This document shows, piece by piece, positions 7,014-26,420 of a DNA stretch of 30,877 nt. How positions within the stretch are numbered: the first letter of the stretch is position 1; each line of letters starts with the position of its first letter. Both the position numbers and the translations under genes were made by a program. The DNA is from a virus. Its lineage: Duplodnaviria; Heunggongvirae; Uroviricota; Caudoviricetes. Below the pieces are notes generated by a model. That model saw nothing but the letters and a program-made list of their open reading frames with translations. It searched no databases and was not told the origin of the DNA. The stretch lies in the IMG/VR virus record IMGVR_UViG_2778261069_000012, positions 1 through 30,877 of that record. One strand, written 5' to 3'.

Positions 7014-9017
7014 ATGCTTAAATTTCGCCGCGATCTTAACGGTTACGGTGGAGTTATTAATGAAGGGCATAACGATCAATACGAATTTGAAATTGCTTTC
7101 TCAAGTACACAGCCTTATCAGCGCCAATTTTGGGATGAGCAAAATCAAGAAATGGTGGTATTAGATGAAATTCTGGTACATACACCGGAAGCGGTTGATC
7201 TGTCTCGTCTGAATAATAACGCTCCGTTGCTGTTCAATCATAATTTCGATAATCACATTGGTGTTGTTTGTAACGCTCGAATCGATGCGGATAACGTAGG
7301 TCGTGCTCTGGTTAAATTCTCCAAGCATGGGACTTTGGCTAATGATATTCGTAATAAAGTCATTGAAGGTACGATGGAAAAAATTTCTGTCGGTTATGAC
7401 ATTAAAGAATATCACATCGATTATGCCAAAGGACAATTGATTGTTACTAAGTGGGCACCCTATGAACTCTCATTTGTCACCGTTCCCGCAGACGATACGG
7501 TCGGTTTAAATCGCTCTCTAAATACTATCACAGTTAATTTGGAGGCTAAACGCGATATGACTAAAGAACAAATCGAAGAAATCAAAAACGAAGAACCCGC
7601 TCAGGTTGAAGAAACTCCGGTAGAAGAAAATAAAGAACTGGAAGTTGAAGAAACTCAAGAGCGCCAAGTTGAAGAGAATAAAGAAAATGAAAATCTCGAA
7701 GACGGAAAAGACGCTGAACATCCTGAAAGTGTTGATGATGATAGTTCAACTGTTCGGGAAACAGAAGAAGTAAAAGAAGAACGTGAAGCCGCTCCGATTG
7801 AAGAAGAAAAAATCGAAGAAGTGGCTGAACGTTCCGAAGAAGACGAATTAGAAATCCGCGAGATCGCGCGGGAACTAAATATTGACGACGAAGAGTTAAA
7901 ACGCGCATTGGCAATTAAAGACATGACGCCGGAAGCATTCCGAACTAAGGCACTAAATAATCTTGTCAATGCTCAACGTAATAACGAACAACAAATTAAG
8001 GACTCTAAAATGGAAAAAACTTTTGACCTGAACAACGTAATTCGCTCTCTGGTAGATGGTGCTGCTCTGGGTGCTAACGAAGCTGAATATTCCGCAATGG
8101 CTGCTACTGCAACTATGCAGCGTGGTCGTGCTGCTCGTGGTGGCTCTGTATTCGTTCCGGCTGCTGCTATGCGTGCTGCTTCTGCTGGTAACACCAAAGC
8201 TGACCTGACCGCTATCACTGACGAAAAACTGATGACTGAATCCTACATCGAAATGCTGATGCCGGAATCTGTTCTGGGTCGTCTGGGTGTGACTGTTTAC
8301 AGTGGCTTGAACTCCCCGACCGCTATTCCAAAAATGACTAAATCCAGCGTTGACGCTTTCGGCTTCGTTGATGAAAACGGTGCTGCACCGGAAAGCAAAG
8401 CTGAATTTGCGAACGTGAAACTGTCTCCGAAAACTTTTGCTGGTGGCAACCCGATCAGCCGTCAGTCGCTGAAAACCGTTCCGGGCATCGCTACCCTGAT
8501 CACCGATCACATTAACAAATCTGTTCGGATCAAACTGGAACAACTGATTCTGTCTGATAAAGAAAATGCTCGTGGTCCGGCTGGTCTGGTTAAGCAACTG
8601 GTAGACGCTAGCCGCGTTACCAAGAAAGCTGCTTTCTCTTATAAAGATTTCCTCAAGGAGATTGCTCAGCTTACGGACGCTGGCGTTCCTGCTCAGGCGA
8701 TCAAGTTTGCAATGAGCGGTGCAACTGCTGCTGAACTGGAATCTACCCTGAAAGATAACGGCGTTTCCGGTTATATCATCGAAAACGGCAAACTGGCTGG
8801 TTACGAAGTAGTTACTTCTGGCGTTATCCCGGCAGACCACATCGTTCTGGGTGACTTCTCCGGTATTACTATCGGTGAGTGGGGAGGTCTGGAACTCGAC
8901 ATGGATCTAACTACATATAGGGATCGTGGTGCGGTAGTGCCTCGTATCTTTGTAGATTTGGACTACGTTGTAGCACAGCCGGAAGCCCTGAAAGTTCTTC
9001 ACATCTCCGCTGAATGA
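7014..9017 (+). CDS. prohead protease / scaffold-like linker / major capsid protein fusion (HK97 fold)
   Basis: 667 aa; N-terminal about 170 aa with LLFNHNFDNHIG motif typical of HK97-family prohead proteases; E/K-rich acidic linker (aa 185-300); C-terminal about 340 aa capsid-like; position after the portal gene. Confidence 0.78.
   Translation: MLKFRRDLNGYGGVINEGHNDQYEFEIAFSSTQPYQRQFWDEQNQEMVVLDEILVHTPEAVDLSRLNNNAPLLFNHNFDNHIGVVCNARIDADNVGRALVKFSKHGTLANDIRNKVIEGTMEKISVGYDIKEYHIDYAKGQLIVTKWAPYELSFVTVPADDTVGLNRSLNTITVNLEAKRDMTKEQIEEIKNEEPAQVEETPVEENKELEVEETQERQVEENKENENLEDGKDAEHPESVDDDSSTVRETEEVKEEREAAPIEEEKIEEVAERSEEDELEIREIARELNIDDEELKRALAIKDMTPEAFRTKALNNLVNAQRNNEQQIKDSKMEKTFDLNNVIRSLVDGAALGANEAEYSAMAATATMQRGRAARGGSVFVPAAAMRAASAGNTKADLTAITDEKLMTESYIEMLMPESVLGRLGVTVYSGLNSPTAIPKMTKSSVDAFGFVDENGAAPESKAEFANVKLSPKTFAGGNPISRQSLKTVPGIATLITDHINKSVRIKLEQLILSDKENARGPAGLVKQLVDASRVTKKAAFSYKDFLKEIAQLTDAGVPAQAIKFAMSGATAAELESTLKDNGVSGYIIENGKLAGYEVVTSGVIPADHIVLGDFSGITIGEWGGLELDMDLTTYRDRGAVVPRIFVDLDYVVAQPEALKVLHISAE
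7556..7900 (+). repeat. low-complexity acidic E/K/V-rich linker inside the capsid fusion ORF
   Basis: Reiterated GAAGAA / EE(x)K(E) motifs; generates spurious antisense ORFs. Confidence 0.6.
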
Positions 9018-10821: not shown

Positions 10822-13800
10822 ATGCAGTCGATCCAATTTAAACGAACAAATGTTTCTGGCAAAAAACCAACACCGGAACAATTACAGGTCGGTGAGGTAG
10901 CAATCAACCTTAAAGACCATGTTATTTTCACCAAAGACCGAGATCATGAAGTAGTTCAAATCTCTGTTTCTCCTGAAACTCACGCGGCACTAGAATCTAA
11001 AGTTGATGCTAACAAACAAGAATTGGATAGCACAATTGCAGTAAATGACCGCAATATTCACGCTAAAGTAGATGAAATTAAACAAACTACTGATGCAACC
11101 ATCGCAGCAAATCACGCAGAAATTAACAATAAAGTTGATGTAATTAAACGCGAAACCGACGCGACAATCGAGGCCAATAAAAATAAAGCTGCTTCCGATC
11201 TTGCTGGTGTTAAAGCTGAATTGTCGGATACCATCAACGCTAATAAAAATGCGGCTGCTGTAGCAACTCAGGAACTGGACACCCGCATCAATAAAAAAGT
11301 TGATGATATTAAATCCCGTACCGATGCAACCATCGTAAGCAATCACAAAGCAATCAATGACAAAGTTGATTTGATTAAGGCAGAAACTGACCGCACTATC
11401 GCAGCAAATCACGCCTATGCGGAAAATCAGTTAACTGACACCTACAATAACCTTACTGGTGTGATTGCAGCCAATAAGCAAGAGGCAGCGGATAACGTCG
11501 CAGCATTAACCCGTGATGTTGAAGCCAAAAATACAGCAATTCATAGCAAAGTTGACAATAACAAGTCTTACACTGATTCTGAATTGGCACGCTTAGAAAG
11601 CCGTATTGATGCAGCCGATGGATCAAGTGATGGTAAGTACATCAAAAAGCACGTAAACACTTGCACTGATGGCTATTTGCTGTCTAAGACCGCAAACCCT
11701 TTTGATGATCCGAGTGCTCTTAATCTTGATTACTTTGGTGCATTTCGCATGAATGACCTGGCGGGTCATATTGCAATGATCTTGCATGTTCCGCACCCAT
11801 CCGGCGTTAATCATGCTCGTGGTTTTGAGTTCACTTATGGGTCTAATCCGGTTCATACGGTAAGAACATACGGCTATGATGAATTGGGACATTTGGCATA
11901 TTCTCACCGCATGTATCATGAAGGTGATAAACCTACTCCGGCTGAAATTGGCGCATATTCGAAAGCAGAAATTGACCGCCTGTTCCAGAAGACGCTTAAT
12001 TTTGGGATCGAGGGCGGTTGGTTTAAACTCGGTAGTTTAACACTGCCACAGCAACACGGTCGCACGGCTAAGATTCGTTTAGTGGGTGGTAACGGTTATA
12101 ACGTCGGACAGAATGGACAAGCCAATATTATTGAACTGGTGATCCGTTGCGGCAACAATAGCCCGAAAGGTGTTGTATTCAATGCGTATTATACTATTTG
12201 GTATTATGAACAACATTTTTGTGCAATTCCTACCGATGGTGATAATTACGATCTTTACGCTTACTATGGTGCACATACAGGATTTGTTTTAGCAGAATAT
12301 CAAGTTTCTTCCGGTGGTGTTTCTTTAAACCTGTTGGATACTCCTGAATACCTGGGCGGTGAAAAACCTGTTGCAGATGAAATTTTTGATGCTCTTAACA
12401 TTTCATCGTTCAATAACTTTAGCAACCGTGGAACGTTAAATTTTGGTGGAAACCATCAAGGTCAATATGACATTGAGCATTTGAACGAACAACCGACAAA
12501 TGCTAAAAAGATGTTGCGTCGCTTCCGTAGTTCTGCTCCTGCCACTATCTGGCATGAGACAGTTGATGATAACGCATATCGTCTTGCTACTGGATACGAA
12601 GATACAAATCAGGAATTATTGCTGACAGCAACATCCGGGTTACATGTCAAGAAATTAACATTGGATGGCGGTGTTACTGGAAATTCTGGTATTGATATTC
12701 GTCGAGGACCAAACGAATCAAGTCATTTTAATTTCATGGATTATCGCACTGGACAAGATGTTCGTAATGGTTGGTTTGGTTTTGGTGATGGAACAACCAA
12801 AGATTTTATTTGGTGGAACGATAACGGTCAAAACTCTATAAACCTGATTGAAGATGGTGAATTGCATATTACTGGCGGTAAAGGCCAGAAAATTGTAATG
12901 AATAGCGAAGTTGCATTATCTGAAAATGCTCGTTTGGCTGTTAAAGGTGGCAATTATGGCTTAATTTTTAGAAATGATGGCGTTGGCTTCCATATTCTTA
13001 CCACAGATCTCGGTGATTCATTTGGACCGTGGAATACTCGTAGACCATTCAGCTATAATTTTGCGGACGGTGGATTATATTTAGGTGGTACTGAAACTGC
13101 TCGTTGTTTGCATCTGGGAATTGATGGTAGCACTCGTCTCGAAGACAACCTGTTCTTTAAAGCTGGTTCTCGTCAATCTATGGACTATATGGAACTCGTC
13201 CATTGGGGGGCAAGCAATACAGGTCGAAATAACGTTTTAAGTCTTCGTGACTCAAAAGGATTTTTCGCAGAATTTGAACGATTGGGTGATGATACCATTA
13301 AAAACACCTTCTTCGGGAAACTTAAAGTTAATCGTGGATCTGACGCAATCATCATGAATGCCGAAAGTGGCGATTCGTCTATATATTTGTTGGGTACTTG
13401 TGCTGATAATAACAACTGGTATATCGGTAAAGGTGGTGCTGATAATGGATTAGCGTTCTATAGCTATGCTACTAATGCTGCTATCAATATTACAAACGCG
13501 GGTGATATCGCGCTAAGTCCGAAAGGCGTCGAAATGACTCATGTCAATAACGTTCGGTTCTATGTTCATGGTGAACGTTGGACTGCTAGCCAATCTGGAG
13601 GCTGGGGCGATCAATGGGGATTAGAAGCGCCGATATTTGTCGATCATGGTTATGTTGGACCAGATAGCTATTATCCAATTATTAAAGGAAGAAGTTTAAT
13701 CACCAATCAAGGGTATACAACTGCCGTCGATTTTGGTATGCGTCGTGTTCCTCAAAATTGGGGGCAAGCTATTATTCGTGTTGGATCTGCGGAGGCATCG

Positions 13801-14232
13801 CCAGCGGCTGGTCATCCTCAAGCTGTATTCGAGTTCCATCATGATGGTACTTTCTATTCTCCTGGTAATGGTAACTTTAACGATGTTTATATTCGTTCCG
13901 ATGGTCGTCTGAAAATTAATGTTGAAGATTACGAAGAAAATGCGGTGGATAAGGTAAATAAACTCAAAGTTAAAACCTACGATAAAGTTAAATCTCTTAA
14001 TGACCGAGAAGTTATAGGTCATGAGATTGGTATTATCGCACAGGATTTACAAGAGGTATTACCGGAAGCTGTTAAAACCGCAAAAATTGGTGGTCTTGAT
14101 AACCCAGAAGAAATTTTAACAATTTCAAACTCCGCAGTGAACGCGCTTTTAATTAAAGCGGTCCAAGAAATGAGCGAAGAAAATAAACTTCTTCGTGAAC
14201 GTCTTGCTGCAATTGAAGCTAAATTAGGGTAA
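10822..14232 (+). CDS. tail fiber protein with C-terminal intramolecular chaperone (peptidase S74-like) domain
   Basis: 1136 aa; N-terminal KKPTPEQLQVGEVAINLKDHVIF fiber-type motif; four 22-aa KVDxIKxxTDATIxANH repeats; C-terminal GHEIGIIAQDLQEVLPEAV ... LLIKAVQEMSEENKLL typical of self-cleaving fiber chaperone domains. Confidence 0.85.
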   Translation: MQSIQFKRTNVSGKKPTPEQLQVGEVAINLKDHVIFTKDRDHEVVQISVSPETHAALESKVDANKQELDSTIAVNDRNIHAKVDEIKQTTDATIAANHAEINNKVDVIKRETDATIEANKNKAASDLAGVKAELSDTINANKNAAAVATQELDTRINKKVDDIKSRTDATIVSNHKAINDKVDLIKAETDRTIAANHAYAENQLTDTYNNLTGVIAANKQEAADNVAALTRDVEAKNTAIHSKVDNNKSYTDSELARLESRIDAADGSSDGKYIKKHVNTCTDGYLLSKTANPFDDPSALNLDYFGAFRMNDLAGHIAMILHVPHPSGVNHARGFEFTYGSNPVHTVRTYGYDELGHLAYSHRMYHEGDKPTPAEIGAYSKAEIDRLFQKTLNFGIEGGWFKLGSLTLPQQHGRTAKIRLVGGNGYNVGQNGQANIIELVIRCGNNSPKGVVFNAYYTIWYYEQHFCAIPTDGDNYDLYAYYGAHTGFVLAEYQVSSGGVSLNLLDTPEYLGGEKPVADEIFDALNISSFNNFSNRGTLNFGGNHQGQYDIEHLNEQPTNAKKMLRRFRSSAPATIWHETVDDNAYRLATGYEDTNQELLLTATSGLHVKKLTLDGGVTGNSGIDIRRGPNESSHFNFMDYRTGQDVRNGWFGFGDGTTKDFIWWNDNGQNSINLIEDGELHITGGKGQKIVMNSEVALSENARLAVKGGNYGLIFRNDGVGFHILTTDLGDSFGPWNTRRPFSYNFADGGLYLGGTETARCLHLGIDGSTRLEDNLFFKAGSRQSMDYMELVHWGASNTGRNNVLSLRDSKGFFAEFERLGDDTIKNTFFGKLKVNRGSDAIIMNAESGDSSIYLLGTCADNNNWYIGKGGADNGLAFYSYATNAAINITNAGDIALSPKGVEMTHVNNVRFYVHGERWTASQSGGWGDQWGLEAPIFVDHGYVGPDSYYPIIKGRSLITNQGYTTAVDFGMRRVPQNWGQAIIRVGSAEASPAAGHPQAVFEFHHDGTFYSPGNGNFNDVYIRSDGRLKINVEDYEENAVDKVNKLKVKTYDKVKSLNDREVIGHEIGIIAQDLQEVLPEAVKTAKIGGLDNPEEILTISNSAVNALLIKAVQEMSEENKLLRERLAAIEAKLG
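11065..11430 (+). repeat. in-frame tandem repeats (about 22-aa units) in the tail fiber shaft
   Basis: Four copies of KVD(E/V/D/L)IK(Q/R/S/A)xTD(A/R)TI(A/E/V)(A/S)N(H/K). Confidence 0.6.
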
Positions 14233-14569: not shown

Positions 14570-14876
14570 ATGGCTGGATGGATAAATCAAAGAATGTCAA
14601 ACGCTATTAGTATTTGGGCTAATGGTGGATATTTTGATATCCCCAACGGCTGGGTTACTGATTCATGCGGAATTGTTTTTGCTCATATGGAAGCCATTAA
14701 CGGTGCTGGTGATCTTGATTCTGAATTGGCTGTAAATGGATTGATTGAATCAGGTCATCATGCTGGTGATACTGGGAGTTGGGGGCGCTAGTTCTTTAGT
14801 TGGCGCTGGTGCTACCGTTAGCTTTACATTGGGTAAAGGTAGTTTGCATTATTTTAAATTCAGGAGAATGCACTAA
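14570..14876 (+). pseudogene. small FDIPNGW-motif protein, paralog 2 of 3, interrupted by a +1 frameshift at a G5 run
   Basis: Frame 2 reads M...GDTGSWGR then stops at 14789-14791; frame 0 continues ASSLVGAGATVSFTLGKGSLHYFKFRRMH to a TAA at 14874-14876, matching the paralog C-termini; the shift maps to GGGGG at 14781-14785. Confidence 0.6.
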
Positions 14877-15785: not shown

Positions 15786-16094
15786 ATGAATATTAATGAA
15801 ATGTTAGCCGCACTTTCTCCGAAACGCGAATCTCTGACCATCGGTGGATTTACTTTCTATGCTCGCCCTATGTCAGTAAAAGAATTTAACGAACATGTTT
15901 TCAATACCGATAAAGAAGACCGTGATGAACGTTCTATTCTTCGTTGTATTGAAGATGAAGACGGTAAGCCAGTATTTGAATCTATTGAACAAGTTAAGGC
16001 ACTGTATACTAACGTCCGCAGTGAATTAATCGGTTTGGTTGCTCAAGCGTCATTGATGCAAGATCCGGCGGTAATTGAAAACGAGGTAAAGTAA
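15786..16094 (+). CDS. tail assembly chaperone candidate (gpG-position)
   Basis: 102-aa ORF immediately upstream of the tape measure gene; assigned by position only. Confidence 0.45.
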   Translation: MNINEMLAALSPKRESLTIGGFTFYARPMSVKEFNEHVFNTDKEDRDERSILRCIEDEDGKPVFESIEQVKALYTNVRSELIGLVAQASLMQDPAVIENEVK

Positions 16095-16123
16095 ACCCGC
16101 TTCTGAATTTCTATTTCCGGCAA

Positions 16124-16465
16124 ATGATGAGATCGGGGCTTAGTAAAGATGAAATGGATAATATGCCAATCACTCTATTTTGGAAATTATACATTTTCGA
16201 CACCTACTTAGAACCACAAAGCCCCGCGTTTCATGATATGCAGAATGCGATGTTGCAATATTCCATGTATATGACGTCGCAAGGAATGACACGCGAAACT
16301 GCAAAGAAACTCAAGCCTAGCCAATTCCAATTAATTAGAGAAGAAAAACTCTTTAAAACTAAAGAAGAACTGGAAGAAATTGCACGCAAGAAAGAAGAAG
16401 AACGTAAAGCGGCAATGCTGAACATGTTTGATCCATCTTTGCTTGAGAAACTCAGAAGCGGTTAA
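16124..16465 (+). CDS. second tail assembly chaperone candidate (gpT-position)
   Basis: 113-aa ORF in the -1 frame relative to the previous ORF; weak SD; assigned by position only. Confidence 0.4.
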   Translation: MMRSGLSKDEMDNMPITLFWKLYIFDTYLEPQSPAFHDMQNAMLQYSMYMTSQGMTRETAKKLKPSQFQLIREEKLFKTKEELEEIARKKEEERKAAMLNMFDPSLLEKLRSG

Positions 16466-16476
16466 AGGGGTAATTT

Positions 16477-18906
16477 ATGACAAAACATATAGTAACAATA
16501 GAAGGGGATAATAAAGGGCTAAAGAGAAGTACCAATGAAGCCGCCGACCTTCTCGATAGTTTGTCTGAAAAGGCAAGTAATATTGATTTTGGTGGTGGCT
16601 TATCTGGTCTGACTGGATCTCTTCGTGGGATCGCTGGCTCTGCTGGTTTAGCTGCTGGTGGTATCGGCTTAGTTGCGACCGCAGTGGTTGCAGCCGCTAA
16701 AGCTGGCGCGGAATACGTTAAACAATATTCAGAAGTATCTAAGGCGACCGGACTCTCGATTGAATCCCTTCAAAGACTGGAAAAGGAATTTTCTGGTACT
16801 GGCCTAACAGTTGAAAAATTCGGTGATATCAACAAAGACACCTTAGATAAGATGGGTGATGCATGGGCTAACGGTGGTGGTATTGCTGATGACTTAGAAT
16901 CGGTTGGCCTTAAGTTAGAAAACTATGCTCACTTCATGACTGATCCGCAAGGTGGTATGAAAGCGGCGATCCAAGTGTTCTATGACATGAAGAAAGCCGG
17001 AAAATCAATGGCTGAAATCAAGTTCATGATGGAATCTTTAGCCAGTGATTCAAGCCATATGACCAGCCAGCTTGAGAAATATAATACTGCTCAAGAGGCG
17101 ATGATCGCTATTCAGAATCAATCTGTTAACGTCACCGAAGAAAACGCTAAAAAATATGATAAATTTTCTCAAAATATCAATAAGCTGGAAAATAACCTGA
17201 AAGGTGTCGGTATGACCATTTCTGGTCCGCTGGTTGATAGTTTAAACTGGTTATTTGACTGGTTTAATATTGATTGGGAAAAGAGTTCTCTATTCAGGGC
17301 ATTAGATCGACTGAATAAAGAAGGCAAGACCGCAACTGGCGGTATTCTTAACGCCAACCATAAAGACGCTCAAAAAATTATTGACAAGTACAATAAAGAA
17401 AAGCGTTGGAATAATCTGGCAGATTGGGAAAAGGCCGCGATCCGTGGTGCTGGTGTCGATCCTCGTACTGCTGGCTTTGATGTTGAAGGATTTAAGAAAC
17501 GTTTTGGTGATTCTTATAAGAAAAATGGCTCTCTGATTGTTGTCGATAACGGGGAACATCTAACCCGCAAGGCAGATCCTAACCGTGATTTGACTATACC
17601 AAATAAACCAGTAAGACCAGAATCATTGGGTAAGTCTGGTAATGAGAAGAAAGCCGAAGAAGAAGCACGCAAGAAAGCGGAAGAGGCAGCTAAAAAGGCT
17701 AAGGAAGCCGCAGAAAAAGCACAGAAAGCACGCGAGGATGCAATCAAGCGACTGAATGCACTTGATGTTAAATTGCAAGGGCAAGTTGCAGCGTCTATCA
17801 CTTCTCAAAATAGCCAGTTGCAAAACAGCTTAAAAGATGTGAACGACGCGTTAGCTCTGGGCTTAATCTCTCAGGAAGACGCAGCCGCGAAACGCCAGGC
17901 GCTAATCGATCAGAATACTGAAAACGTTTATAAAATGATGTTGGGTGCTGATCCGATTGATGCTCTGAATGCTTTAACACAATTGCAACAAATCAGGGAC
18001 AACGAGCTAGAAAGCCATAAACGGTTACTTGATGGTAAAGCTATCTCCTACGAAGAATATATGCGTCGTGTGAACGATACCGAGCAAAACTATTCTCAGA
18101 TTGAAAATTCTTTACAGGGAATGGATGGTTATAAAACCAATCAATTAACTAGTAGTTATGATTATCAAGACTCAAATAATCCGTTTGCTAAATTTAATGC
18201 AATCGATAAAGAGAAATCGGATGCTGAACAAGATTATAAGACCGATAAACTCAAGATTGATGGGATCACCGATCCGGCTAAACGGATGGAAGCATTAGAA
18301 AAACTCAATGAAAACCATCAAAAACGAATGGCTGCAATTGAGAAGAAATATGCTGATGCTCGCCAGTCAATAGCCGATGATATGTACGGCGGTTTTGCTG
18401 CTGCAATGACTCTCTTCGGGCAGGAAAACACTAAAGCTATGCAGATGGCTTTCAATGCTCATAAAGCATTCTCTATCGGACAAGCGACGGTGAACATGTG
18501 GACGGCTGCTACCGATGCATGGAACGATCCGACCAACGTCACCACAGGTCAAAAAATCGCGGCTGCTGCATTGGCTGTTTCTCAGAACATGGGGAACATC
18601 GCAAACATCAAGTCTACTAACGTTAGCGGTATGGCTCATGATGGTATTGATAACATCCCTCGTGAGGGTACATGGTTGCTTGATAAGGGTGAACGAGTAG
18701 TTGATCAGCGTACTAACGGTGATTTGAAAGACTTCCTTGCTGCTCAAAAATCAGGTGGTGGTAACTCTCAGCCGATTGAAGTTAATGCGCCTTTGAACAT
18801 TAACGGCAACGTTAATAGCTCAGACAAGATGGTCATGGATGCTATCAAACGTCACGCTAAGTTTGTTGCTCAGGCGATAGAAGACGTTCAGCGTCGTAAG
18901 ATGTAA
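16477..18906 (+). CDS. tail tape measure protein
   Basis: 809 aa; Gly/Ala-rich hydrophobic segment (GIAGSAGLAAGGIGLVATAVVAAAKAG); long coiled-coil-like regions (EKKAEEEARKKAEEAAKKAKEAAEKAQKARE); position between the chaperones and the tip genes; SD AAAGGGGTAA. Confidence 0.82.
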   Translation: MTKHIVTIEGDNKGLKRSTNEAADLLDSLSEKASNIDFGGGLSGLTGSLRGIAGSAGLAAGGIGLVATAVVAAAKAGAEYVKQYSEVSKATGLSIESLQRLEKEFSGTGLTVEKFGDINKDTLDKMGDAWANGGGIADDLESVGLKLENYAHFMTDPQGGMKAAIQVFYDMKKAGKSMAEIKFMMESLASDSSHMTSQLEKYNTAQEAMIAIQNQSVNVTEENAKKYDKFSQNINKLENNLKGVGMTISGPLVDSLNWLFDWFNIDWEKSSLFRALDRLNKEGKTATGGILNANHKDAQKIIDKYNKEKRWNNLADWEKAAIRGAGVDPRTAGFDVEGFKKRFGDSYKKNGSLIVVDNGEHLTRKADPNRDLTIPNKPVRPESLGKSGNEKKAEEEARKKAEEAAKKAKEAAEKAQKAREDAIKRLNALDVKLQGQVAASITSQNSQLQNSLKDVNDALALGLISQEDAAAKRQALIDQNTENVYKMMLGADPIDALNALTQLQQIRDNELESHKRLLDGKAISYEEYMRRVNDTEQNYSQIENSLQGMDGYKTNQLTSSYDYQDSNNPFAKFNAIDKEKSDAEQDYKTDKLKIDGITDPAKRMEALEKLNENHQKRMAAIEKKYADARQSIADDMYGGFAAAMTLFGQENTKAMQMAFNAHKAFSIGQATVNMWTAATDAWNDPTNVTTGQKIAAAALAVSQNMGNIANIKSTNVSGMAHDGIDNIPREGTWLLDKGERVVDQRTNGDLKDFLAAQKSGGGNSQPIEVNAPLNINGNVNSSDKMVMDAIKRHAKFVAQAIEDVQRRKM

Positions 18907-18912
18907 TTAAAA

Positions 18913-18955
18913 GCCCCCATAGTGATAAATAATCATAAAACTATGGGGGCTTTTC
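18913..18955 (+). terminator. long hairpin plus U4 after the tape measure gene; its 3' arm contains the SD of the next gene
   Basis: GCCCCCATAG ... CTATGGGGGC 10-bp stem with 18-nt loop, then TTTT and the ATG at 18957. Confidence 0.5.
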
Positions 18956-18956
18956 T

Positions 18957-19517
18957 ATGTTCAAATCCAAGAATATTAAAATCACAGATTTTACTCTTAA
19001 ATCAAAACAGCCTTTCTTCAAGGCGCAATCTATCTCCGGTAAGTTCCAGCGTCGCTTTACTGGCATCCATTTTTACGAAGCAGAATTTACCGCGAATTAC
19101 ATGGCTCAGGATATTAACGAAGTAAAAGAATTTGTAGCACGTCACCTTTTTGGTCGTCCTTTTAGTGTGCCACTGTCTTACTTTTCAAAATATACAGGCG
19201 ATGTACGCCAGATGGTTACGGCTGCTGCTGGTACTGCTCGCGGTGGGCGTAAGGTAAGACTCTCCAACTTCACCGGAACACTGAAAGCGGGAACTGTCAT
19301 CCAGTTTGAGAACCACAAGAAAATCTACACGATCACCGAAGACGTGAAATCAGGTGGTGAAATGAAACTCTTCCCTAACTTGCGTCAAAACGTCCTGGCT
19401 GGTGAGGTGATCAAGTATCAGAACGTAGAAGGTGAATTTGTTCTCAAAACTGAAAACATCGATTGGAAGATCGCCCAGATTGGCAAGATGAAATTCGAAT
19501 TAGTGGAGAATGTATAA
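18957..19517 (+). CDS. minor tail protein (lambda gpM-position, distal tail candidate)
   Basis: 186-aa ORF directly after the tape measure gene; assigned by position. Confidence 0.5.
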   Translation: MFKSKNIKITDFTLKSKQPFFKAQSISGKFQRRFTGIHFYEAEFTANYMAQDINEVKEFVARHLFGRPFSVPLSYFSKYTGDVRQMVTAAAGTARGGRKVRLSNFTGTLKAGTVIQFENHKKIYTITEDVKSGGEMKLFPNLRQNVLAGEVIKYQNVEGEFVLKTENIDWKIAQIGKMKFELVENV

Positions 19518-20170
19518 TGGCAACTATTCAGGAATCATTCAGCAAACTATGCACTAATCTGGACTTCATCGAGGTCTACAACGACCAGACAGGTCAGAAC
19601 GTGTCTAGATTGACGCTACCGCAGCTTTTTTCCACTGGATCGATGTTTCACATTATCGAAGTGATTACCGCGTCAGGGGACGTTCTACGGCTTACAGATG
19701 GGTACTTCGATTTGGACTATAACGGATTTACATATCTCGCAACGGGTGATTTTCTTCAAATCTCATCAAATACCGAAGAGAAGGAGATCAACAACAACGG
19801 GATTAACGTAACCGTTTCTAACGTTCGCGAGGAATACATTACCCTGATTCGAAACAAGCAATTCGATAAATCAGATGTGAAAATCGAAATGGTGTTCCTG
19901 AACCCTAACACGGGCAAGGTTGAAACAACTTACCCTGTTTTCCGTGGGGTAGTCGATTCCATCGGGATTAACATCGAACATGAAGATGATGAGTGTAAAA
20001 ACGAATCAGAATTTCAGCTTAATAGTATCTGGGAAGTTCTAGATAAAAACGCTCGTAGTCATGCCTCCGATGGTATCCACCGTTCCTATGTTGGAAACGA
20101 GAACGATCTATTCTTCTCAAGGACCGGGCGCTGGCAATCGGAAAGCAAGTGGCATTCATCGAAGAAATAA
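19517..20170 (+). CDS. minor tail protein (lambda gpL-position)
   Basis: Start at ATG 19517 (SD GGAGA; TAATG overlap with the previous stop) rather than the upstream extension at 19463; 217 aa, close to lambda gpL size. Confidence 0.5.
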   Translation: MATIQESFSKLCTNLDFIEVYNDQTGQNVSRLTLPQLFSTGSMFHIIEVITASGDVLRLTDGYFDLDYNGFTYLATGDFLQISSNTEEKEINNNGINVTVSNVREEYITLIRNKQFDKSDVKIEMVFLNPNTGKVETTYPVFRGVVDSIGINIEHEDDECKNESEFQLNSIWEVLDKNARSHASDGIHRSYVGNENDLFFSRTGRWQSESKWHSSKK

Positions 20171-20216
20171 TCCCTTCTCCCTAAGCCTAGTAAATAACAG
20201 CATGGAGGTATTCAAC

Positions 20217-20636
20217 ATGCTAAAAACTAGGCTTATCACCGATTACATCAATTCTTTAATAGGTCAGGAGTTCGTTCAAGGCGAGAATGATTGCAATATA
20301 ATTGCATGTAAGATCATCGATATTCTCGCTGGTACTGACCTATATAATTCTCTTTATAAAAAATATTCAACTAAAGAAGAAGGCTTGAAAATCTGCAAAG
20401 AATTAAGCGGATACACAAATATCCTTCAACCAATTAAGAAACATTTCAAATTAGTCACTGATGATTTACAGGACGGCGACTTACTGGTCACAGCCCACAA
20501 ATTAGGAAACCGCAAATATTATTCCGTAGTTCCTCATTATTCCGGTTATGGCCTCGTTGAAGAAGATGGTATCTGGATGACCATTCCTGTTTCAGACATT
20601 GACTATGAACAAGTTTATAGATTCGGGGGTGAATAA
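20217..20636 (+). CDS. tail tip assembly protein, gpK-like NlpC/P60-type cysteine peptidase domain
   Basis: Start at ATG 20217 (SD GGAGG 8 nt upstream); ENDC catalytic-Cys motif near the N-terminus with His residues downstream; stop overlaps the next start (TAATG). Confidence 0.5.
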   Translation: MLKTRLITDYINSLIGQEFVQGENDCNIIACKIIDILAGTDLYNSLYKKYSTKEEGLKICKELSGYTNILQPIKKHFKLVTDDLQDGDLLVTAHKLGNRKYYSVVPHYSGYGLVEEDGIWMTIPVSDIDYEQVYRFGGE

Positions 20637-23600
20637 TGGGATTTGAAATATTAGTAGGCGCGGTTATTGCTGGTGCGTCTGCTGGGATGGCTGCTGCTGC
20701 AACGTTTTCTGTTATGACCGCAGTCGCTATCGGTATGGCTGCTGGTGCAATGACCTTGATCGCTTCCACTGTAGGCGCACCAAAAACACCGAAAGTACAA
20801 AGCCCAGATAATGCGGTGACACTAGGAACATCAAACGATCCTAAGACAGTATTACCCGTTCTTTTTGGTACTACCCGCACGGGTGCAATCTGCGTTTACA
20901 AGGCAATTTCACAGCGTGAAAATAACAAGCTGGTACAAATTTTTGCTATTGCCGAAGGTGAGATCGATCACTTTAAAGCACTGCACATCGATAATAAAAA
21001 CGTTCTCATTAGCCAGAATATGACAATTCGTGATGGCATTCTCGATAAAGGAAACATTAAAGACGAATACCGCAAAGTTTTAGAAGTCGAGTTTCGCACG
21101 GGTAAAAATCCTAACACTGCATTGGATTTAGCTAAACATCATTTGGGCGCTGATTGGGATGATCGGTATCAGGGTAACGGCATTGCGACCATGTGTATTG
21201 TTTTACGTCGTGATGACAAATCTTTGGCTGCTGGTGTTGATATTCTCCAGCCTAATAGCCAGGTAGCGGTCGATGTTATGGGCTTAAAGATTCGTAACCT
21301 TGAAACCAATGCTATTGAGGCTAGCACTAACGGCGTGGACCAGATTTTCCATTATCTGACAAATACAAAGTATGGTCTTAGTGTACCGATTGAAAATATT
21401 AACGTTGATTCATTCCTGAAAGTGCGTAAACAAGTACGCCAGATGGATTTACATTCCAACGGTGCATGTGATCCGAACGCCAGCTTTAAAGAGAACTTAA
21501 CTAGCCTTATGCAGACTTTCGGCGGGGTGATGTTCGAATCCTTTGGACGTATTACGCTGAAACTGGATGCTCCTGATATTGTTAAGCATACCTTCAATGA
21601 AGACAATATCATGATGGGTAAGGTATCACTGAAAACAGGTGGCACTAACGGTTATTTCAATACCATTAACGCGATGTATCAAGAACCATCAATCGACTAT
21701 TCAGAGCAAATGCTACGTTATCCGGCTGATGCTGAAAACGATGCTACTATTCGTCAAGATGGTCGAATTATCGCTAAAGACATTGAATATCGTTTTGTTA
21801 AGTCTAAAGCCCAGATTGATAAACTAGCGAGTGTAGAACGAAATAAATCTCGTATCACTCAGGTTATCAGCTTTATGACTACTGACGCATTCACTGCCGA
21901 AGTGTGGGATGTTATTAGCGTTACCTATGATGAATTAAAACTGAATAATTCACTTTGGCGCATTACTGCAATTGATCGTTCTATTGATTCTGGTATTGCT
22001 GGGATGATGACTATCACCGCTACAGAATATAATTCTCAGGTTTATACTGACCTGAACTATGCGGCTAACCCAGATAACCGACCAAGTGGTTTACCGGATT
22101 CAATGACAGTACAGAAGCCTACTAATTTCAGAATTAAGGCAACTGGTGAAACCATCCACGGTAAAAACGTAACTTTGACATGGGATGCACCGGAAGATTT
22201 CAACCGCTACGGTTTCCAGATTGATTATCGTGTGAGTGGATCACCTAACTGGATTAAGCTGGGACAGACTTCACAGCAAATTTTCAATATCAATGCACTG
22301 GCAAAAGATCGCTCCTACGATTACCGCGTTTGTGCTTTCGGTATTATTGCTCGTTCCGAATGGGTGGAACTGGTTAACCAGAATCCTACTGTTACCTATG
22401 AATTGCCGACTCCGGTTATTCGAATCAAAAATCAGGGTAGCACGCCTGGTACTTTCGAAGGCAATGATCTGATTATCGAATGGGAAAATCAGCAACAATT
22501 AGATGTGATGATCAACGGTGAAGCTAACAAGTTTAGTGACCTGTTTGAAGCATACATTATCAAGGTAACTAACAAGGCTGGTAAGTCTATTCAGTACCGT
22601 ACCCGCGATCCTGAATCATGGACTTATACGCTTGATATGAACCAGTTTAACGGCCTTTCCCGTGAATTGACGGTAGAAGTATCAGTCAAGGGCTATAACA
22701 ACTCAGAGAGCGCCCCAGCGCGTTTAGTGGCTATCAACCCACAACATAAGCCGATGAAAGGTTTTAGTGCGCGTGGTGGCTTTAATACTGCGTTTGTTAG
22801 CTGGGCGGATGACGTAGAACATGACTATGCAGGGTCAATCATCCAGTATGCAACCGATAATACTTTCTCCGATGCAAGGGCAGTGACTACCAATAGCGTT
22901 AGTCATACTTCCTTTGATTTGGCTGACGGTGATTATTATATCCGTGGTGCTCACTATGATATTTTCGGTATGGATGATGCTGTTTGGTCTGAACCGTATT
23001 TCATGCAAATGAAATCTACCATTAGCTGGGACGATCAGGACAAAGAAGCACTGGAAGACCTGATTGGTTTACAAGATCGCTTAGATGAAACCATCGCGGA
23101 TGCTATTGCTCAAGCTGGCGCTAATGCCGATGCTAAGATTGATGCAATGCATAAACAGATTACTACCGAGACAGGGCAGACGGTCCAAGCCTCAGCCGAT
23201 ACTCTCAAGAGTCTGATTGCTACCAGTGAGCAAGCCAGCGCAACTAAGATTGATCAGGTTAAAGCTGAACTGAAAGGCGATATCACCAAAGAAGTTAGCG
23301 CATCCGCTACTACCCTGAAACAAGCAATTGCTACCAGTGAGGCAGCAAGCGCAAGTAAGATTGATCAAGTTCGGGTAGAAATGGATGGCAAGATTGCTGG
23401 TGTGAATCAGGAAGCAGATGTAAAAATCGATGCTTTGAAGGGAACCATTAACAGCAAATATAATCTGGCAGTTAATGCAGATGGTCGCGTGGCTGGTATT
23501 CATATGAGCGCAACCAATGATCCGGCAGAACCGACAAGAATCATCTTTACGGCTGATAAAATCGCGGTAGCTCCACAAGACGGATCAGAAGTTTGTCCGT

Positions 23601-24412
23601 TTGGTATCGAAGGTAACAAGGTTTATCTCGATAATGCCATGATTCGTAATGGGGCGATCGGAACAGCCCAGATCAACGATGCTAGCATCACCACGGCTAA
23701 AATCGGCACAGCCCAGATTAACGGTGCTCACATCCAGCACGCCCAGATCGGAACAGGTCATATTATTGATGGCTCTATCGATAATGCTAAAATTGGTAAC
23801 TATATCCAGTCTTATAACTGGAATGGTAACGATGGATGGTATATCGGCAAAGATGGCACTTGTCATTTTAGACACGCTAATATTCGTGGTCATTTGGTGG
23901 CTGATTCCGGCGAAATGAACAACGTAACGATTAATTCAAGTTGCCGCATTTTGGGTATGCTTGATGCTAATCAGGTGCGTGGTGACTTCGTGAAAGCTAT
24001 TGGTCGTCGATTCCCACATTGGGACGAAAACCCATCATTGGGCTATCCCGGTTATCCGCAAGGTACAATCACTGTTCGAATTGAAGATGATCACCCGTTT
24101 GATCGTCAGATTATCGTTCCGGCTATTAGCTTTGGTGGTCTTAATGCGCGTGAAGGCTCGAATAACAATACTTACTATGATAACTGTCGCTTGATTGTTC
24201 GCAAGAACGGTGCTGAATTATATAACCGTGCATATGGCAGACAGACTGGATTGTATAGTGCTGTTATTGATATGCCAGCCGGACACGGACCAGTTACGCT
24301 AACTTTTGAAGTAAGTTCAAGCGCAATCAACAACTGGACTCCCAGCACATGGATCAGCGATCTTTCTGTAATTGTTACTAAGAAAGCCGCTACGGGTATT
24401 TCTGTTTCTTAA
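20636..24412 (+). CDS. tail tip / host-specificity protein, gpJ-like, with an N-terminal gpI-C-like hydrophobic domain fused in frame
   Basis: 1258 aa; N-terminal about 95 aa (Gly/Ala-rich hydrophobic stretch, PKTPKVQSPDN, VLPVLFGTTRTGA) resembles the C-terminal half of lambda gpI; C-terminal about 150 aa (DDHPFDRQIIVP ... VIDMPAGHGPVTLTF ... ATGISVS) resembles the lambda gpJ C-terminus from memory. Confidence 0.88.
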   Translation: MGFEILVGAVIAGASAGMAAAATFSVMTAVAIGMAAGAMTLIASTVGAPKTPKVQSPDNAVTLGTSNDPKTVLPVLFGTTRTGAICVYKAISQRENNKLVQIFAIAEGEIDHFKALHIDNKNVLISQNMTIRDGILDKGNIKDEYRKVLEVEFRTGKNPNTALDLAKHHLGADWDDRYQGNGIATMCIVLRRDDKSLAAGVDILQPNSQVAVDVMGLKIRNLETNAIEASTNGVDQIFHYLTNTKYGLSVPIENINVDSFLKVRKQVRQMDLHSNGACDPNASFKENLTSLMQTFGGVMFESFGRITLKLDAPDIVKHTFNEDNIMMGKVSLKTGGTNGYFNTINAMYQEPSIDYSEQMLRYPADAENDATIRQDGRIIAKDIEYRFVKSKAQIDKLASVERNKSRITQVISFMTTDAFTAEVWDVISVTYDELKLNNSLWRITAIDRSIDSGIAGMMTITATEYNSQVYTDLNYAANPDNRPSGLPDSMTVQKPTNFRIKATGETIHGKNVTLTWDAPEDFNRYGFQIDYRVSGSPNWIKLGQTSQQIFNINALAKDRSYDYRVCAFGIIARSEWVELVNQNPTVTYELPTPVIRIKNQGSTPGTFEGNDLIIEWENQQQLDVMINGEANKFSDLFEAYIIKVTNKAGKSIQYRTRDPESWTYTLDMNQFNGLSRELTVEVSVKGYNNSESAPARLVAINPQHKPMKGFSARGGFNTAFVSWADDVEHDYAGSIIQYATDNTFSDARAVTTNSVSHTSFDLADGDYYIRGAHYDIFGMDDAVWSEPYFMQMKSTISWDDQDKEALEDLIGLQDRLDETIADAIAQAGANADAKIDAMHKQITTETGQTVQASADTLKSLIATSEQASATKIDQVKAELKGDITKEVSASATTLKQAIATSEAASASKIDQVRVEMDGKIAGVNQEADVKIDALKGTINSKYNLAVNADGRVAGIHMSATNDPAEPTRIIFTADKIAVAPQDGSEVCPFGIEGNKVYLDNAMIRNGAIGTAQINDASITTAKIGTAQINGAHIQHAQIGTGHIIDGSIDNAKIGNYIQSYNWNGNDGWYIGKDGTCHFRHANIRGHLVADSGEMNNVTINSSCRILGMLDANQVRGDFVKAIGRRFPHWDENPSLGYPGYPQGTITVRIEDDHPFDRQIIVPAISFGGLNAREGSNNNTYYDNCRLIVRKNGAELYNRAYGRQTGLYSAVIDMPAGHGPVTLTFEVSSSAINNWTPSTWISDLSVIVTKKAATGISVS
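23189..23410 (+). repeat. in-frame tandem duplication (about 111 nt / 37 aa) within the gpJ-like gene
   Basis: SADTLKSLIATSEQASATKIDQVKAELKG versus SATTLKQAIATSEAASASKIDQVRVEMDG; the nearby IGTAQIN motif also occurs twice. Confidence 0.6.
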
Positions 24413-24430
24413 AATTTAATTCTAATAATT

Positions 24431-24471
24431 AATCCCGCTTAATTCTTTTGAGTTAAGCGGGATTATTTTTA
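24431..24471 (+). terminator. rho-independent terminator after the gpJ-like gene
   Basis: AATCCCGCTTAA / TTAAGCGGGATT 12-bp stem, 10-nt loop, then ATTTTTAT. Confidence 0.8.
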
Positions 24472-26066: not shown

Positions 26067-26420
26067 ATGTTAAGTAAGCATTTTTCTCGCAAGGAATTTA
26101 AATGTAAATGCGGAAAATGTGATTATGATACAATCGACGCTGAATTACTGGTGATTCTTGAGGATGTACGAGAGCACTTCGGTAAACCAGTGATTATTAA
26201 CAGTGGCAACCGTTGCCCGACTCATAACAAGAATGTAGGCGGGGCAGCCAATAGCTATCACGTTCGAGGCCGCGCGGCTGACATTGTTATCAAGGGTGTC
26301 TCGCCTGATATTGTTCATGCTTATCTTGATGGGAAATATCCTACTCAATACGGCTTAGGAAAATATAAAACCTTTACGCATATTGATTCCAGATCAAAAA
26401 AATCACGGTGGAATGGATAA
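26067..26420 (+). CDS. endolysin candidate, peptidase M15-type zinc peptidase
   Basis: 117 aa; SGNRCPTHNKNVGGAANSYHVRGRAADI ... THID matches the H/D/H zinc-binding signature of small M15 cell-wall peptidases; SD AAGGGGGTAA; no signal peptide. Confidence 0.78.
   Translation: MLSKHFSRKEFKCKCGKCDYDTIDAELLVILEDVREHFGKPVIINSGNRCPTHNKNVGGAANSYHVRGRAADIVIKGVSPDIVHAYLDGKYPTQYGLGKYKTFTHIDSRSKKSRWNG

Follow-up and report, generated by a model that had tools for sequence, protein, structure and literature searches.

A probable plug element at the N-terminus of the J-like tail-tip protein of an Escherichia coli prophage, compared with lambda, T5 and gene transfer agents

In phage lambda, residues 134/135–223 of gpI form a trimeric 'tripod' plug in the lumen of the tail tip, which holds the C-terminal helices of the tape measure protein. 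This plug binds gpJ via three β-sheet augmentations, and its hydrophobic start (residues 137–152) is thought to enter the outer membrane (PMC10721106, PMC12617516). In T5, the plug belongs to pb3 (hairpin tip at 233–236); it unfolds and refolds, and anchors in the outer membrane (PMC10038345). It has been proposed that gpL, together with gpI and gpJ's N-terminal part, corresponds to T5 pb3 (PMC10721106). In the gene transfer agent (GTA) RcGTA and in roseophage R4C, the genes run in the order distal tail protein (Dit), hub, ~150-residue peptidase and megatron, and the megatron's N-terminus is a hydrophobic iris or penetration domain that closes the channel (PMC7296036, PMC10276861). Here we compare with these systems the tail-tip module at 18957–24412 of a 30,877-nucleotide virus sequence (IMG/VR record IMGVR_UViG_2778261069_000012, positions 1–30,877; this whole stretch is called the window below). 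The J-like protein of the module carries, at its N-terminus, a region homologous to the C-terminal half of gpI.

Two of the lambda proteins have been dissected previously. Iyer, Burroughs and Aravind (2006) described TAPI as a ubiquitin-like (β-grasp) domain, a Gly-rich linker and a C-terminal domain (TAPI-C), and K as a JAB domain followed by an NlpC/P60 domain (PMC1779556). They also reported TAPI–TAPJ fusions in some prophages and NlpC/P60-only versions of TAPK, possibly degenerate, and proposed that JAB releases the ubiquitin-like domain from TAPI (PMC1779556). Although tails do not assemble without lambda gpK, neither mass spectrometry nor cryo-electron microscopy has detected it in virions (PMC10721106, PMC12617516).

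Four co-oriented genes make up 18957–24412, downstream of the tape measure gene. A first-pass annotation of the window had given their coordinates and sizes correctly, and had described them as following the lambda order M-L-K-I-J with no separate I gene, a description with which the open reading frames (ORFs) agree. The K-position stop and the J start share one base (TAATG), and a terminator (16-bp stem plus T run) lies at 24430–24465, after J. Because K and J overlap and the terminator directly follows J, there is no I gene between K and J or after J. The Prokaryotic Genome Annotation Pipeline (PGAP) chose the same gene starts on identical prophages, with the names 'DUF6950 family protein', 'DUF2163 / baseplate hub domain-containing' and 'phage tail tip protein'.

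The N-terminus of J and its relation to gpI

The J gene and the two N-terminal segments considered here are as follows.

20636..24412, plus strand: J-like central tail-tip protein, 1258 aa, last gene of the tail operon (from the ORF)
20636..20776, plus strand: J 1–47, Gly/Ala-rich hydrophobic segment (Kyte-Doolittle)
20777..20929, plus strand: J 48–98, polar linker and 'LPVLFG..R.G' strand region, homologous to gpI 156–215 (TAPI-C; BLASTP, hhalign and profiles)

The first ~95 residues of J had been noted to resemble the C-terminal half of gpI, and this resemblance proved significant in both search directions. In pairwise comparison, J 48–107 aligned to gpI 156–223 with 35% identity (BLASTP with composition adjustment, E 2e-6). 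When 11 J N-termini were compared with 10 gpI proteins by hhalign, the match (E 6.5e-7, probability 92%) fell in the non-hydrophobic motif region, J 62–98. A significant similarity of the J N-terminus to gpI was a point on which the earlier proposal had been made to depend.

We then built an N-terminal profile (A3) from 10 diverse J N-termini and searched it against 177,635 distinct PDB sequences. Two proteins only were matched at E ≤ 10, lambda gpI and T5 pb3. Profile positions 11–105 aligned to gpI 119–222 (E 6.8e-5), and positions 71–119 to pb3 263–311 (E 1.7e-4). In the reverse direction, an HMM (hidden Markov model) of the gpI family matched 31 of the 150 J-family representatives searched, plus one IMG/VR relative, in their first ~90 residues. 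These matches always lie at model positions ~86–197, in the C-terminal half, and never in the ubiquitin-like half. Word-indexed protein searches started from this N-terminus gave close enterobacterial relatives only, most of them truncated.

The order of elements is also that of gpI. In J 1–98, a Gly-rich hydrophobic region comes first and the TAPI-C motif (..PVP..YG..R.GG..) after it. Hydropathy of J 1–47 is high (Kyte-Doolittle 19-residue means of 1.4–1.7 for window centres 10–40), and this is the sole such stretch in the protein, the maximum elsewhere being 0.93. Lambda gpI has a like hydrophobic stretch at ~100–155, the counterpart of J 1–47. Collectively, these sequence comparisons confirm the homology of J ~6–105 to the C-terminal half of gpI (~118–222), and we infer that J 1–47 serves as the lumen plug and the outer-membrane insertion element.

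Lambda-type proteins also inform on where the two polypeptides would join. Concatenates of lambda-type I and J are collinear with the J N-terminal profile. The N-terminal part of gpJ alone showed no significant match to this profile (best E 0.007, for a Mannheimia phage; 0.47 for lambda), and hence the exact I/J split point is suggestive but unproven.

The peptidase, the missing partner domains and the spread of the cassette

Immediately upstream of J lies the second gene of interest.

20217..20636, plus strand: single-domain NlpC/P60-fold cysteine peptidase (DUF6950), gpK position, 139 aa (PGAP start)

This protein had been described as ~139 residues long with an NlpC/P60-type Cys/His domain alone, and that is what we found. 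It matches DUF6950 (PF22262) with 45.2 bits against a cutoff of 27, over profile positions 10–126 of 134, and has no other match in Pfam. Its homologues all carry PF22262, and the 20 in our alignment (A1) are all 128–148 residues long. Invariant among them are G22, N24, D25, C26, N27, G87 and D88, with H94 present in at least 90%. The AlphaFold2 model of the 139-residue protein, made from 18 sequences, has a pLDDT (predicted local distance difference test score) of 91.7 and places C26 at a helix N-terminus and H94 on a β strand, which is the arrangement of papain-like enzymes. A search of predicted viral structures gave phage DUF6950 proteins of 130–150 residues as the best matches, followed by NlpC/P60 proteins, and the closest folds are all peptidoglycan endopeptidases. 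The K-position protein thus has an NlpC/P60 papain-like domain with conserved Cys and His. In NCBIfam, it gave no match to the TIGR02219 phage NlpC family. On the predicted structure, DUF6950 and gpK share a fold, and they share a gene position, but they are not demonstrated orthologues.

The bipartite organization of lambda K, as given in the first-pass annotation, agrees with Pfam and with the published description (PMC1779556). Lambda K matches NLPC_P60 and, partially, Prok-JAB (23.3 bits against a cutoff of 25), and six aligned lambda-type K homologues have the full N-terminal JAB region and are 236–250 residues long. The annotated lambda K (NC_001416, 4777–5376) is without the N-terminal ~50 residues of these homologues, including a conserved 'E.CG' segment; either its annotated start is too far downstream, or its JAB domain is truncated.

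For gpI, the description as a ubiquitin-like N-terminal domain plus a C-terminal domain was likewise right (PF06805; PMC1779556), with lambda gpI matching PF06805 (Lambda_tail_I) at E 1.1e-28. Both partner domains, ubiquitin-like and JAB, had been said to be missing from the module. When every substantial window ORF was scanned with Pfam, neither PF06805 nor JAB came up. We also searched all window segments of at least 25 residues, in six frames, with HMMs of lambda-type K and I proteins, and found no match to the JAB part or to gpI HMM positions 1–95, the ubiquitin-like part. A JAB/MPN domain is therefore absent not only from the K-like and adjacent ORFs but from every frame of the window as searched. 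The same holds more widely: no JAB or ubiquitin-like match was found within 4 kb at 20 related IMG/VR loci, and neither region was found in the best 150 J-family representatives.

We next asked how common this arrangement is. DUF6950 lies directly upstream of J in five of five loci from phages, namely E. coli phage DCP80, Vibrio phages henriette 12B8, 2.058.O and V6Aob, and Pseudomonas phage Lebethron, and gene sizes and order are kept at 20–50% protein identity in isolated Vibrio, Pseudomonas and E. coli phages. Our IMG/VR sample consisted of 20 loci carrying a DUF6950 relative. At 19 of these, the gene after DUF6950 is a J that matches the plug profile at its N-terminus; in complete contigs, this J has ~800–1260 residues. 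When the N-terminal half of J was searched in full with HMMER against 1.84 billion cluster representatives (50% identity), 3448 clusters were matched at E ≤ 1e-3, of which 1217 reach E ≤ 1e-10; two scans of GTDB species genomes gave no relatives. The best 150 family representatives include 137 full-length sequences. Nearly all of these (134/137) match the N-terminal profile within the first 120 residues, and in 113/137 the N-terminus has a strongly hydrophobic stretch. As to the split form, 1734 phage records contain gpI as a separate gene. By these sequence counts, fused and split forms are both common, and the fused form is the norm in the J family. The label 'domain rearrangements' given to the locus earlier does not hold in the sense of an unusual rearrangement, the fused form being the norm, with the RcGTA/R4C gene order and collinearity with pb3.

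Variants of the cassette were also seen. In Pelagibacter phage HTVC202P (2544–6790), Dit and a hub-position protein are present, as is a J that carries the N-terminal region, but neither DUF6950 nor any other peptidase gene lies between hub and J; hence the peptidase is not universal in the cassette. One J-family subgroup (P0063, P0065, P0082, P0083 and P0085; 1228–3055 residues) starts at an 'IPVCYGE' strand, without the hydrophobic stretch. In these long J proteins, the membrane-active part may be encoded elsewhere or missing.

Wherever the plug (TAPI-C) is in cis at the start of J, be it in the window, at the 20 loci or in the best 150 representatives, the ubiquitin-like domain and JAB are both missing. 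A peptidase of the NlpC/P60 fold, however, stays beside J in the window and at nearly all of the loci, HTVC202P being one exception. With the plug made in cis within J, a ubiquitin-like carrier and a JAB protease would not be needed for plug supply. We therefore offer, tentatively and at somewhat less than even confidence, the view that the ubiquitin-like domain and JAB may constitute a dedicated plug-delivery device, a soluble carrier removed by JAB, and that the NlpC/P60 function may be independent, older and unrelated to processing of the ubiquitin-like protein. If true, this contradicts one suggestion of Iyer et al. (2006), namely NlpC/P60 processing of the ubiquitin-like protein. It is plausible that the joint absence, as seen in these sequence searches, lends comparative support to the idea that the JAB domain of gpK processes gpI, the role of NlpC/P60 being separable.

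The rest of the tail tip and its prophage setting

The other features of the module, with the tape measure gene upstream of it, are listed below.

16477..18906, plus strand: tape measure protein, 809 aa (phrog_13674, E 2.9e-67)
18957..19517, plus strand: distal tail protein (Dit), gpM position, 186 aa (phrog_1302, E 1.3e-16)
19517..20170, plus strand: baseplate hub N-terminal (attachment, HDI-type) protein, gpL position, 217 aa (PF09931; PGAP start)
20843..22099, plus strand: J 70–488, hub body, equivalent to T5 pb3 261–739, its central part to lambda gpJ 266–499 (profile A5 vs PDB)
22151..22360, plus strand: J 506–575, fibronectin type III-like domain (Pfam fn3, E 0.015, below cutoff; weak FNIII matches in PDB)
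23426..23716, plus strand: J 931–1027, lambda-type tail tip fibre segment (Phage_Tail_Tip, PF09327, E 3.6e-18)
23837..24409, plus strand: J 1068–1258, lambda-type C-terminal receptor-binding domain (Ig_GpJ_C, PF12421, E 2.2e-35)

When a profile of the first ~490 J residues (A5) was searched against PDB, T5 pb3 261–739 was matched with E 6.6e-44 and lambda gpJ 266–499 with E 1.3e-10. The Pfam family Phage-tail_3 is found at J 285–447 with E 8e-4 (19.7 bits vs a cutoff of 23). This is the only one of the four families FNIII-A_GpJ, Phage-tail_3, Ig_J and Ig_J_second that the window J matches, and it does so below cutoff, whereas lambda gpJ matches all four strongly. On the NCBIfam model lambda_TipJ, the window J scores 212.9 bits against a cutoff of 1950. 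By sequence, then, the J body resembles T5 pb3 far more than lambda gpJ.

The C-terminal end is different. J 1073–1257 and lambda gpJ 952–1131 are 41% identical over 186 aligned residues, and the best PDB match of J 1068–1258 is 'A8 gpJ' (9wca, E 6.6e-51), compared to 1e-35 for lambda gpJ. A8 is a natural E. coli gpJ variant with which Brodel et al. (2024) retargeted lambda particles to OmpC (PMC11338833). Given this similarity of the receptor-binding domain to A8 gpJ, the predicted receptor is probably OmpC rather than LamB. The domain is thus close to an OmpC-targeting gpJ variant already in engineered delivery particles.

Dit, at 186 residues, is larger than gpM (109 residues), and hhalign detected no similarity between Dit and the gpM family. 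Dit has a weak, sub-cutoff match to the B domain of T5 pb9 (PF21430, E 0.0026). The hub matches PF09931 (Phage_phiJL001_Gp84_N; E 1e-5, 26.2 bits vs a cutoff of 26), the attachment domain of the phiJL001 gp84 / GTA g13 type of hub, and not Phage_tail_L. Its similarity to the gpL family is weak but in the right register (hhalign E 9e-4, probability 22%). The window hub has 2 cysteines and its relatives 0–3, versus 5–8 in gpL family members, and by this count the four-cysteine iron-sulfur site is absent from the hub and its lineage. Such a cluster has been described as universal in gpL homologues, and is present in the RcGTA and R4C hubs. NCBIfam matched nothing in Dit, hub or peptidase, and PDB sequence searches with the hub and with the peptidase family profile gave no match. 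We do not claim sequence-level homology for the Dit/gpM, hub/gpL or DUF6950/gpK pairs. The module had been called 'lambda-type'; this stands for the C-terminal ~330 residues of J, which are clearly lambda-like, but not for Dit, the hub or the J body.

A Pfam scan of the tape measure protein revealed no lytic domain, only weak sub-cutoff matches. In lambda and T5, the gpI / pb3 plug is the seat of the tape measure's C-terminal helices (PMC10721106, PMC12617516, PMC10038345), and by analogy the C-terminus of the window tape measure would pair with the plug at the J N-terminus. The gap from the tape measure stop (18906) to the Dit start codon (18957) is filled, at 18913–18956, by a perfect 10-bp inverted repeat, GCCCCCATAG ... 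CTATGGGGGC, with an 18-nt loop and a following TTTTCT; its long loop kept the terminator scan from calling it.

The window is a prophage (~35 kb) of a temperate E. coli siphophage. Among 5426 complete E. coli genomes, 57 have the tail-tip region, with 80–99% nucleotide identity and in every case on the chromosome. At least 80% of this region is covered in 51 E. coli genomes, with the J ORF continuous there and in distant relatives. In a megablast search, only E. coli chromosomes were matched, and phage and plasmid collections gave no DNA-level match to the region. In strain BS74R-D, the prophage adjoins hicB/ydcR, with a large serine recombinase at the flank. Some carrier strains (ETEC1703, NZ_CP122923; 14EC017, NZ_CP024134) have the tail-tip region interrupted or expanded by a NUMOD3 domain (homing-endonuclease-like) gene, and one strain has an IS1A as well.

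Several other features of the window were recorded. At 7014–9017, a single 667-residue ORF is a protease–capsid fusion, with Peptidase_S78 (prohead serine protease) at 40–162 and Phage_capsid (major capsid) at 409–663. A 1136-residue side tail fibre gene (10822–14232) lies between the head-completion and tail tube genes, far upstream of the tail-tip cassette; its product contains trimerisation regions of the T4 gp34/gp37 type and, at its C-terminus, the intramolecular chaperone Peptidase_S74. At 14570–14876, the related prophage BS74R-D has one 102-residue gene but the window two overlapping short ORFs (73 and 43 residues), which suggests a frameshift in this small head-tail gene. Finally, between tail tube and tape measure (15786–16465) there are two adjacent small ORFs, matching the phrog_344 tail assembly chaperone and, weakly, Phage_tail_T. 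These two ORFs occupy the usual G/T position, at which a programmed frameshift is expected.

Proposed mechanism, alternatives and comparison with known systems

We consider it quite likely that the window encodes a tail-tip cassette of Dit, hub, small peptidase and 'megatron'/J, with a gpI-C plug element at the J N-terminus. How such a tip might work can be proposed from homology, lambda and T5 having solved structures, and from the analogy with RcGTA. Dit would form the last hexameric ring, and three hub and three J proteins would form the cone. The three J N-termini would fold back into the cone lumen, close the tail and seat the C-terminus of the tape measure. Once the C-terminal domain had bound a porin of the outer membrane, probably OmpC, the cone would open; the hydrophobic J N-termini, once freed, would insert into the outer membrane, with the tape measure and DNA to follow. 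The DUF6950 peptidase could be an endopeptidase that the virion delivers to the peptidoglycan, the role proposed for RcGTA g14 and R4C gp15, or a gpK-like assembly factor. As the tape measure is without a lytic domain and the lysis endolysin is a separate M15 peptidase (26067–26420), a virion-associated role is modestly favoured.

A number of observations weigh against this picture. The gpI similarity is modest in the PDB profile search (24–26 bits), and the aligned region is partly compositionally biased. The AlphaFold2 model of J 1–480, made from a shallow alignment, is poor (mean pLDDT 40, with residues 1–84 below 50) and does not support the proposed plug placement. Neither profile A3 (E ≤ 10) nor profile A5 (E ≤ 1) had RcGTA g15 among its PDB matches. 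The OmpC assignment has a single source, the similarity to A8 gpJ. As for the peptidase, DUF6950 and the gpK NlpC/P60 domain align in the correct register (GxNDC/HGxxDC, DGDLLV/PGDVLL) but with an hhalign E of 0.006 and a probability of 6%, and a third catalytic residue was not identified in the DUF6950 protein. Moreover, with gpK absent from lambda virions (PMC10721106), a virion-delivered role is not a safe extrapolation.

This last point bears on an alternative in which the DUF6950 protein is not an ejected hydrolase but non-enzymatic, or purely an assembly-phase factor like gpK, or a protease of some phage protein such as the tape measure or J. We regard this as possible though somewhat unlikely. 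It would fit the behaviour of lambda gpK, needed for tail assembly yet missing from the virion (PMC10721106, PMC12617516), the loss of tail formation on deletion of RcGTA g14 (PMC7296036), and the cleavage of lambda gpH by an unknown protease (PMC12617516). However, RcGTA g14 degrades peptidoglycan, and right-sized unassigned density is seen in the tail lumen of RcGTA and R4C (PMC7296036, PMC10276861). The folds closest to the DUF6950 protein, moreover, are without exception those of peptidoglycan endopeptidases, and a tape measure with no recognisable lytic domain leaves the need for one in place. Assembly and hydrolase roles are also not mutually exclusive.

The resemblance between J and gpI could in principle be a compositional artefact of Gly/Ala-rich stretches, the start of J being a signal- or anchor-like segment. 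Indeed, J 1–47 is of low complexity (Gly/Ala/Ile/Val), HMMER applied a bias term of 4.3–5.0 bits to the gpI match, and the full gpI HMM reached an E of only 0.19 on the window J in the six-frame search. Yet the significant alignments fall in the non-hydrophobic part (J 48–107 by BLASTP, J 62–98 by hhalign). PDB, with its 177,635 sequences, includes thousands of membrane proteins, and still gpI and pb3 alone were matched at E ≤ 10, the pb3 match being without any hydrophobic stretch. Finally, the reciprocal gpI HMM matches fall at one constant place in 31 independent family members. Non-hydrophobic alignments, specific PDB matches and reciprocal HMM matches together led us to reject the artefact, which we hold to be very improbable.

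Least credible of all is decay of a defective prophage, with a deletion joining I to J (loss of the ubiquitin-like domain) and truncation of K (loss of JAB): the element is a prophage, a small gene at 14570–14876 is probably frameshifted, and Iyer et al. (2006) speculated that NlpC/P60-only TAPK proteins are degenerate prophage variants (PMC1779556), but we reject decay because the cassette keeps its gene sizes and order in isolated Vibrio, Pseudomonas and E. coli phages and many IMG/VR contigs, the 20 DUF6950 homologues are all of one size class (128–148 residues) with Cys26 invariant and His94 in at least 90%, the J family is large, with the plug region at the start of most members, and the K/J overlap is a translational-coupling arrangement.

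A cassette with its plug in cis, our preferred reading, leaves the current understanding of siphophage tail tips unchanged. Much of it was already known: the layout from T5 and gene transfer agents, the gene names from PGAP, and the existence of TAPI–TAPJ fusions and of NlpC/P60-only K proteins. Added here are the identity of the J N-terminus as TAPI-C alone, the collinearity with pb3, and the joint absence of the ubiquitin-like domain and JAB when the plug is in cis. For annotation, the N-terminal ~100 residues of the 'phage tail tip' family can be labelled as the gpI-C / pb3-plug equivalent, and DUF6950 as the single-domain NlpC/P60 counterpart of gpK and GTA g14.

Compared with the fusions of Iyer et al. 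(2006), which contain the whole TAPI, the window J has TAPI-C alone. And where the NlpC/P60-only K proteins of that study were possibly degenerate, the peptidase here is a divergent DUF6950 protein conserved across phages.

With lambda, the window shares the functional gene order, the gpI-C region (here at the start of J), the fibre and receptor end, and the NlpC/P60 fold, and the J centre gives a profile match to gpJ 266–499. Lambda differs in having a separate I gene, a ubiquitin-like domain and a JAB domain, all three of which the window is without. The window Dit is unrelated to gpM as far as our methods detect, and the window hub falls outside Phage_tail_L and has no iron-sulfur cysteines. 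Lambda gpJ is LamB-specific, whereas the window receptor-binding domain is nearer to that of the OmpC-specific A8 gpJ.

The likeness to T5 lies in the body. In pb3, the plug immediately precedes residue 263, where the match of the J N-terminal profile starts. The hdII–hdIV body of pb3, with its hdII insertion, is found in the window J (70–488 vs 261–739). In both proteins, the strand that reads 'PVVYG' in pb3 and the EGEID strand ('AFAEGEIDGF' in pb3, 'AIAEGEIDHF' in the window J) are contiguous; in lambda-type J proteins, an 'EGE' motif near the start is the counterpart of this EGEID strand. T5 pb3 holds the HDI/hub domain in the same polypeptide, whereas in the window it is a separate 217-residue gene product, and the pb3 match starts at 261. 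The T5 plug is an internal helix/hairpin, and that of the window an N-terminal Gly/Ala-rich hydrophobic segment. T5 has a muralytic domain on its tape measure pb2, with no separate NlpC/P60 gene in that account of the tip (PMC10038345). Its central fibre and receptor-binding protein are separate (pb4 and pb5), while in the window both are within J.

The layout is that of RcGTA and roseophage R4C. RcGTA g12–g15, R4C genes 013–016 and the window have an identical order, a peptidase of ~130–150 residues and a last protein of more than 1000 residues, and their hubs belong to one Pfam family (PF09931/DUF2163). For RcGTA and R4C, the hydrophobic N-terminus of this last protein has been proposed to pierce the outer membrane (PMC7296036, PMC10276861). 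The RcGTA/R4C hub has a four-cysteine iron-sulfur cluster, versus 2 Cys in the window hub, and the RcGTA/R4C C-terminus is a fibre-binding domain, where the window J has a lambda-type fibre and receptor-binding domain. The likeness of the window J to RcGTA g15, to which the PDB profile searches detected no sequence similarity, is one of layout and function only.

Across these systems, the plug can be supplied in three ways. Here and in the GTA megatron, it is in cis at the N-terminal end of the large protein; in T5, it is internal to pb3; and in lambda, gpI supplies it in trans, with a ubiquitin-like carrier. The window combines the RcGTA/R4C layout with a pb3-like body and a lambda-like receptor end.

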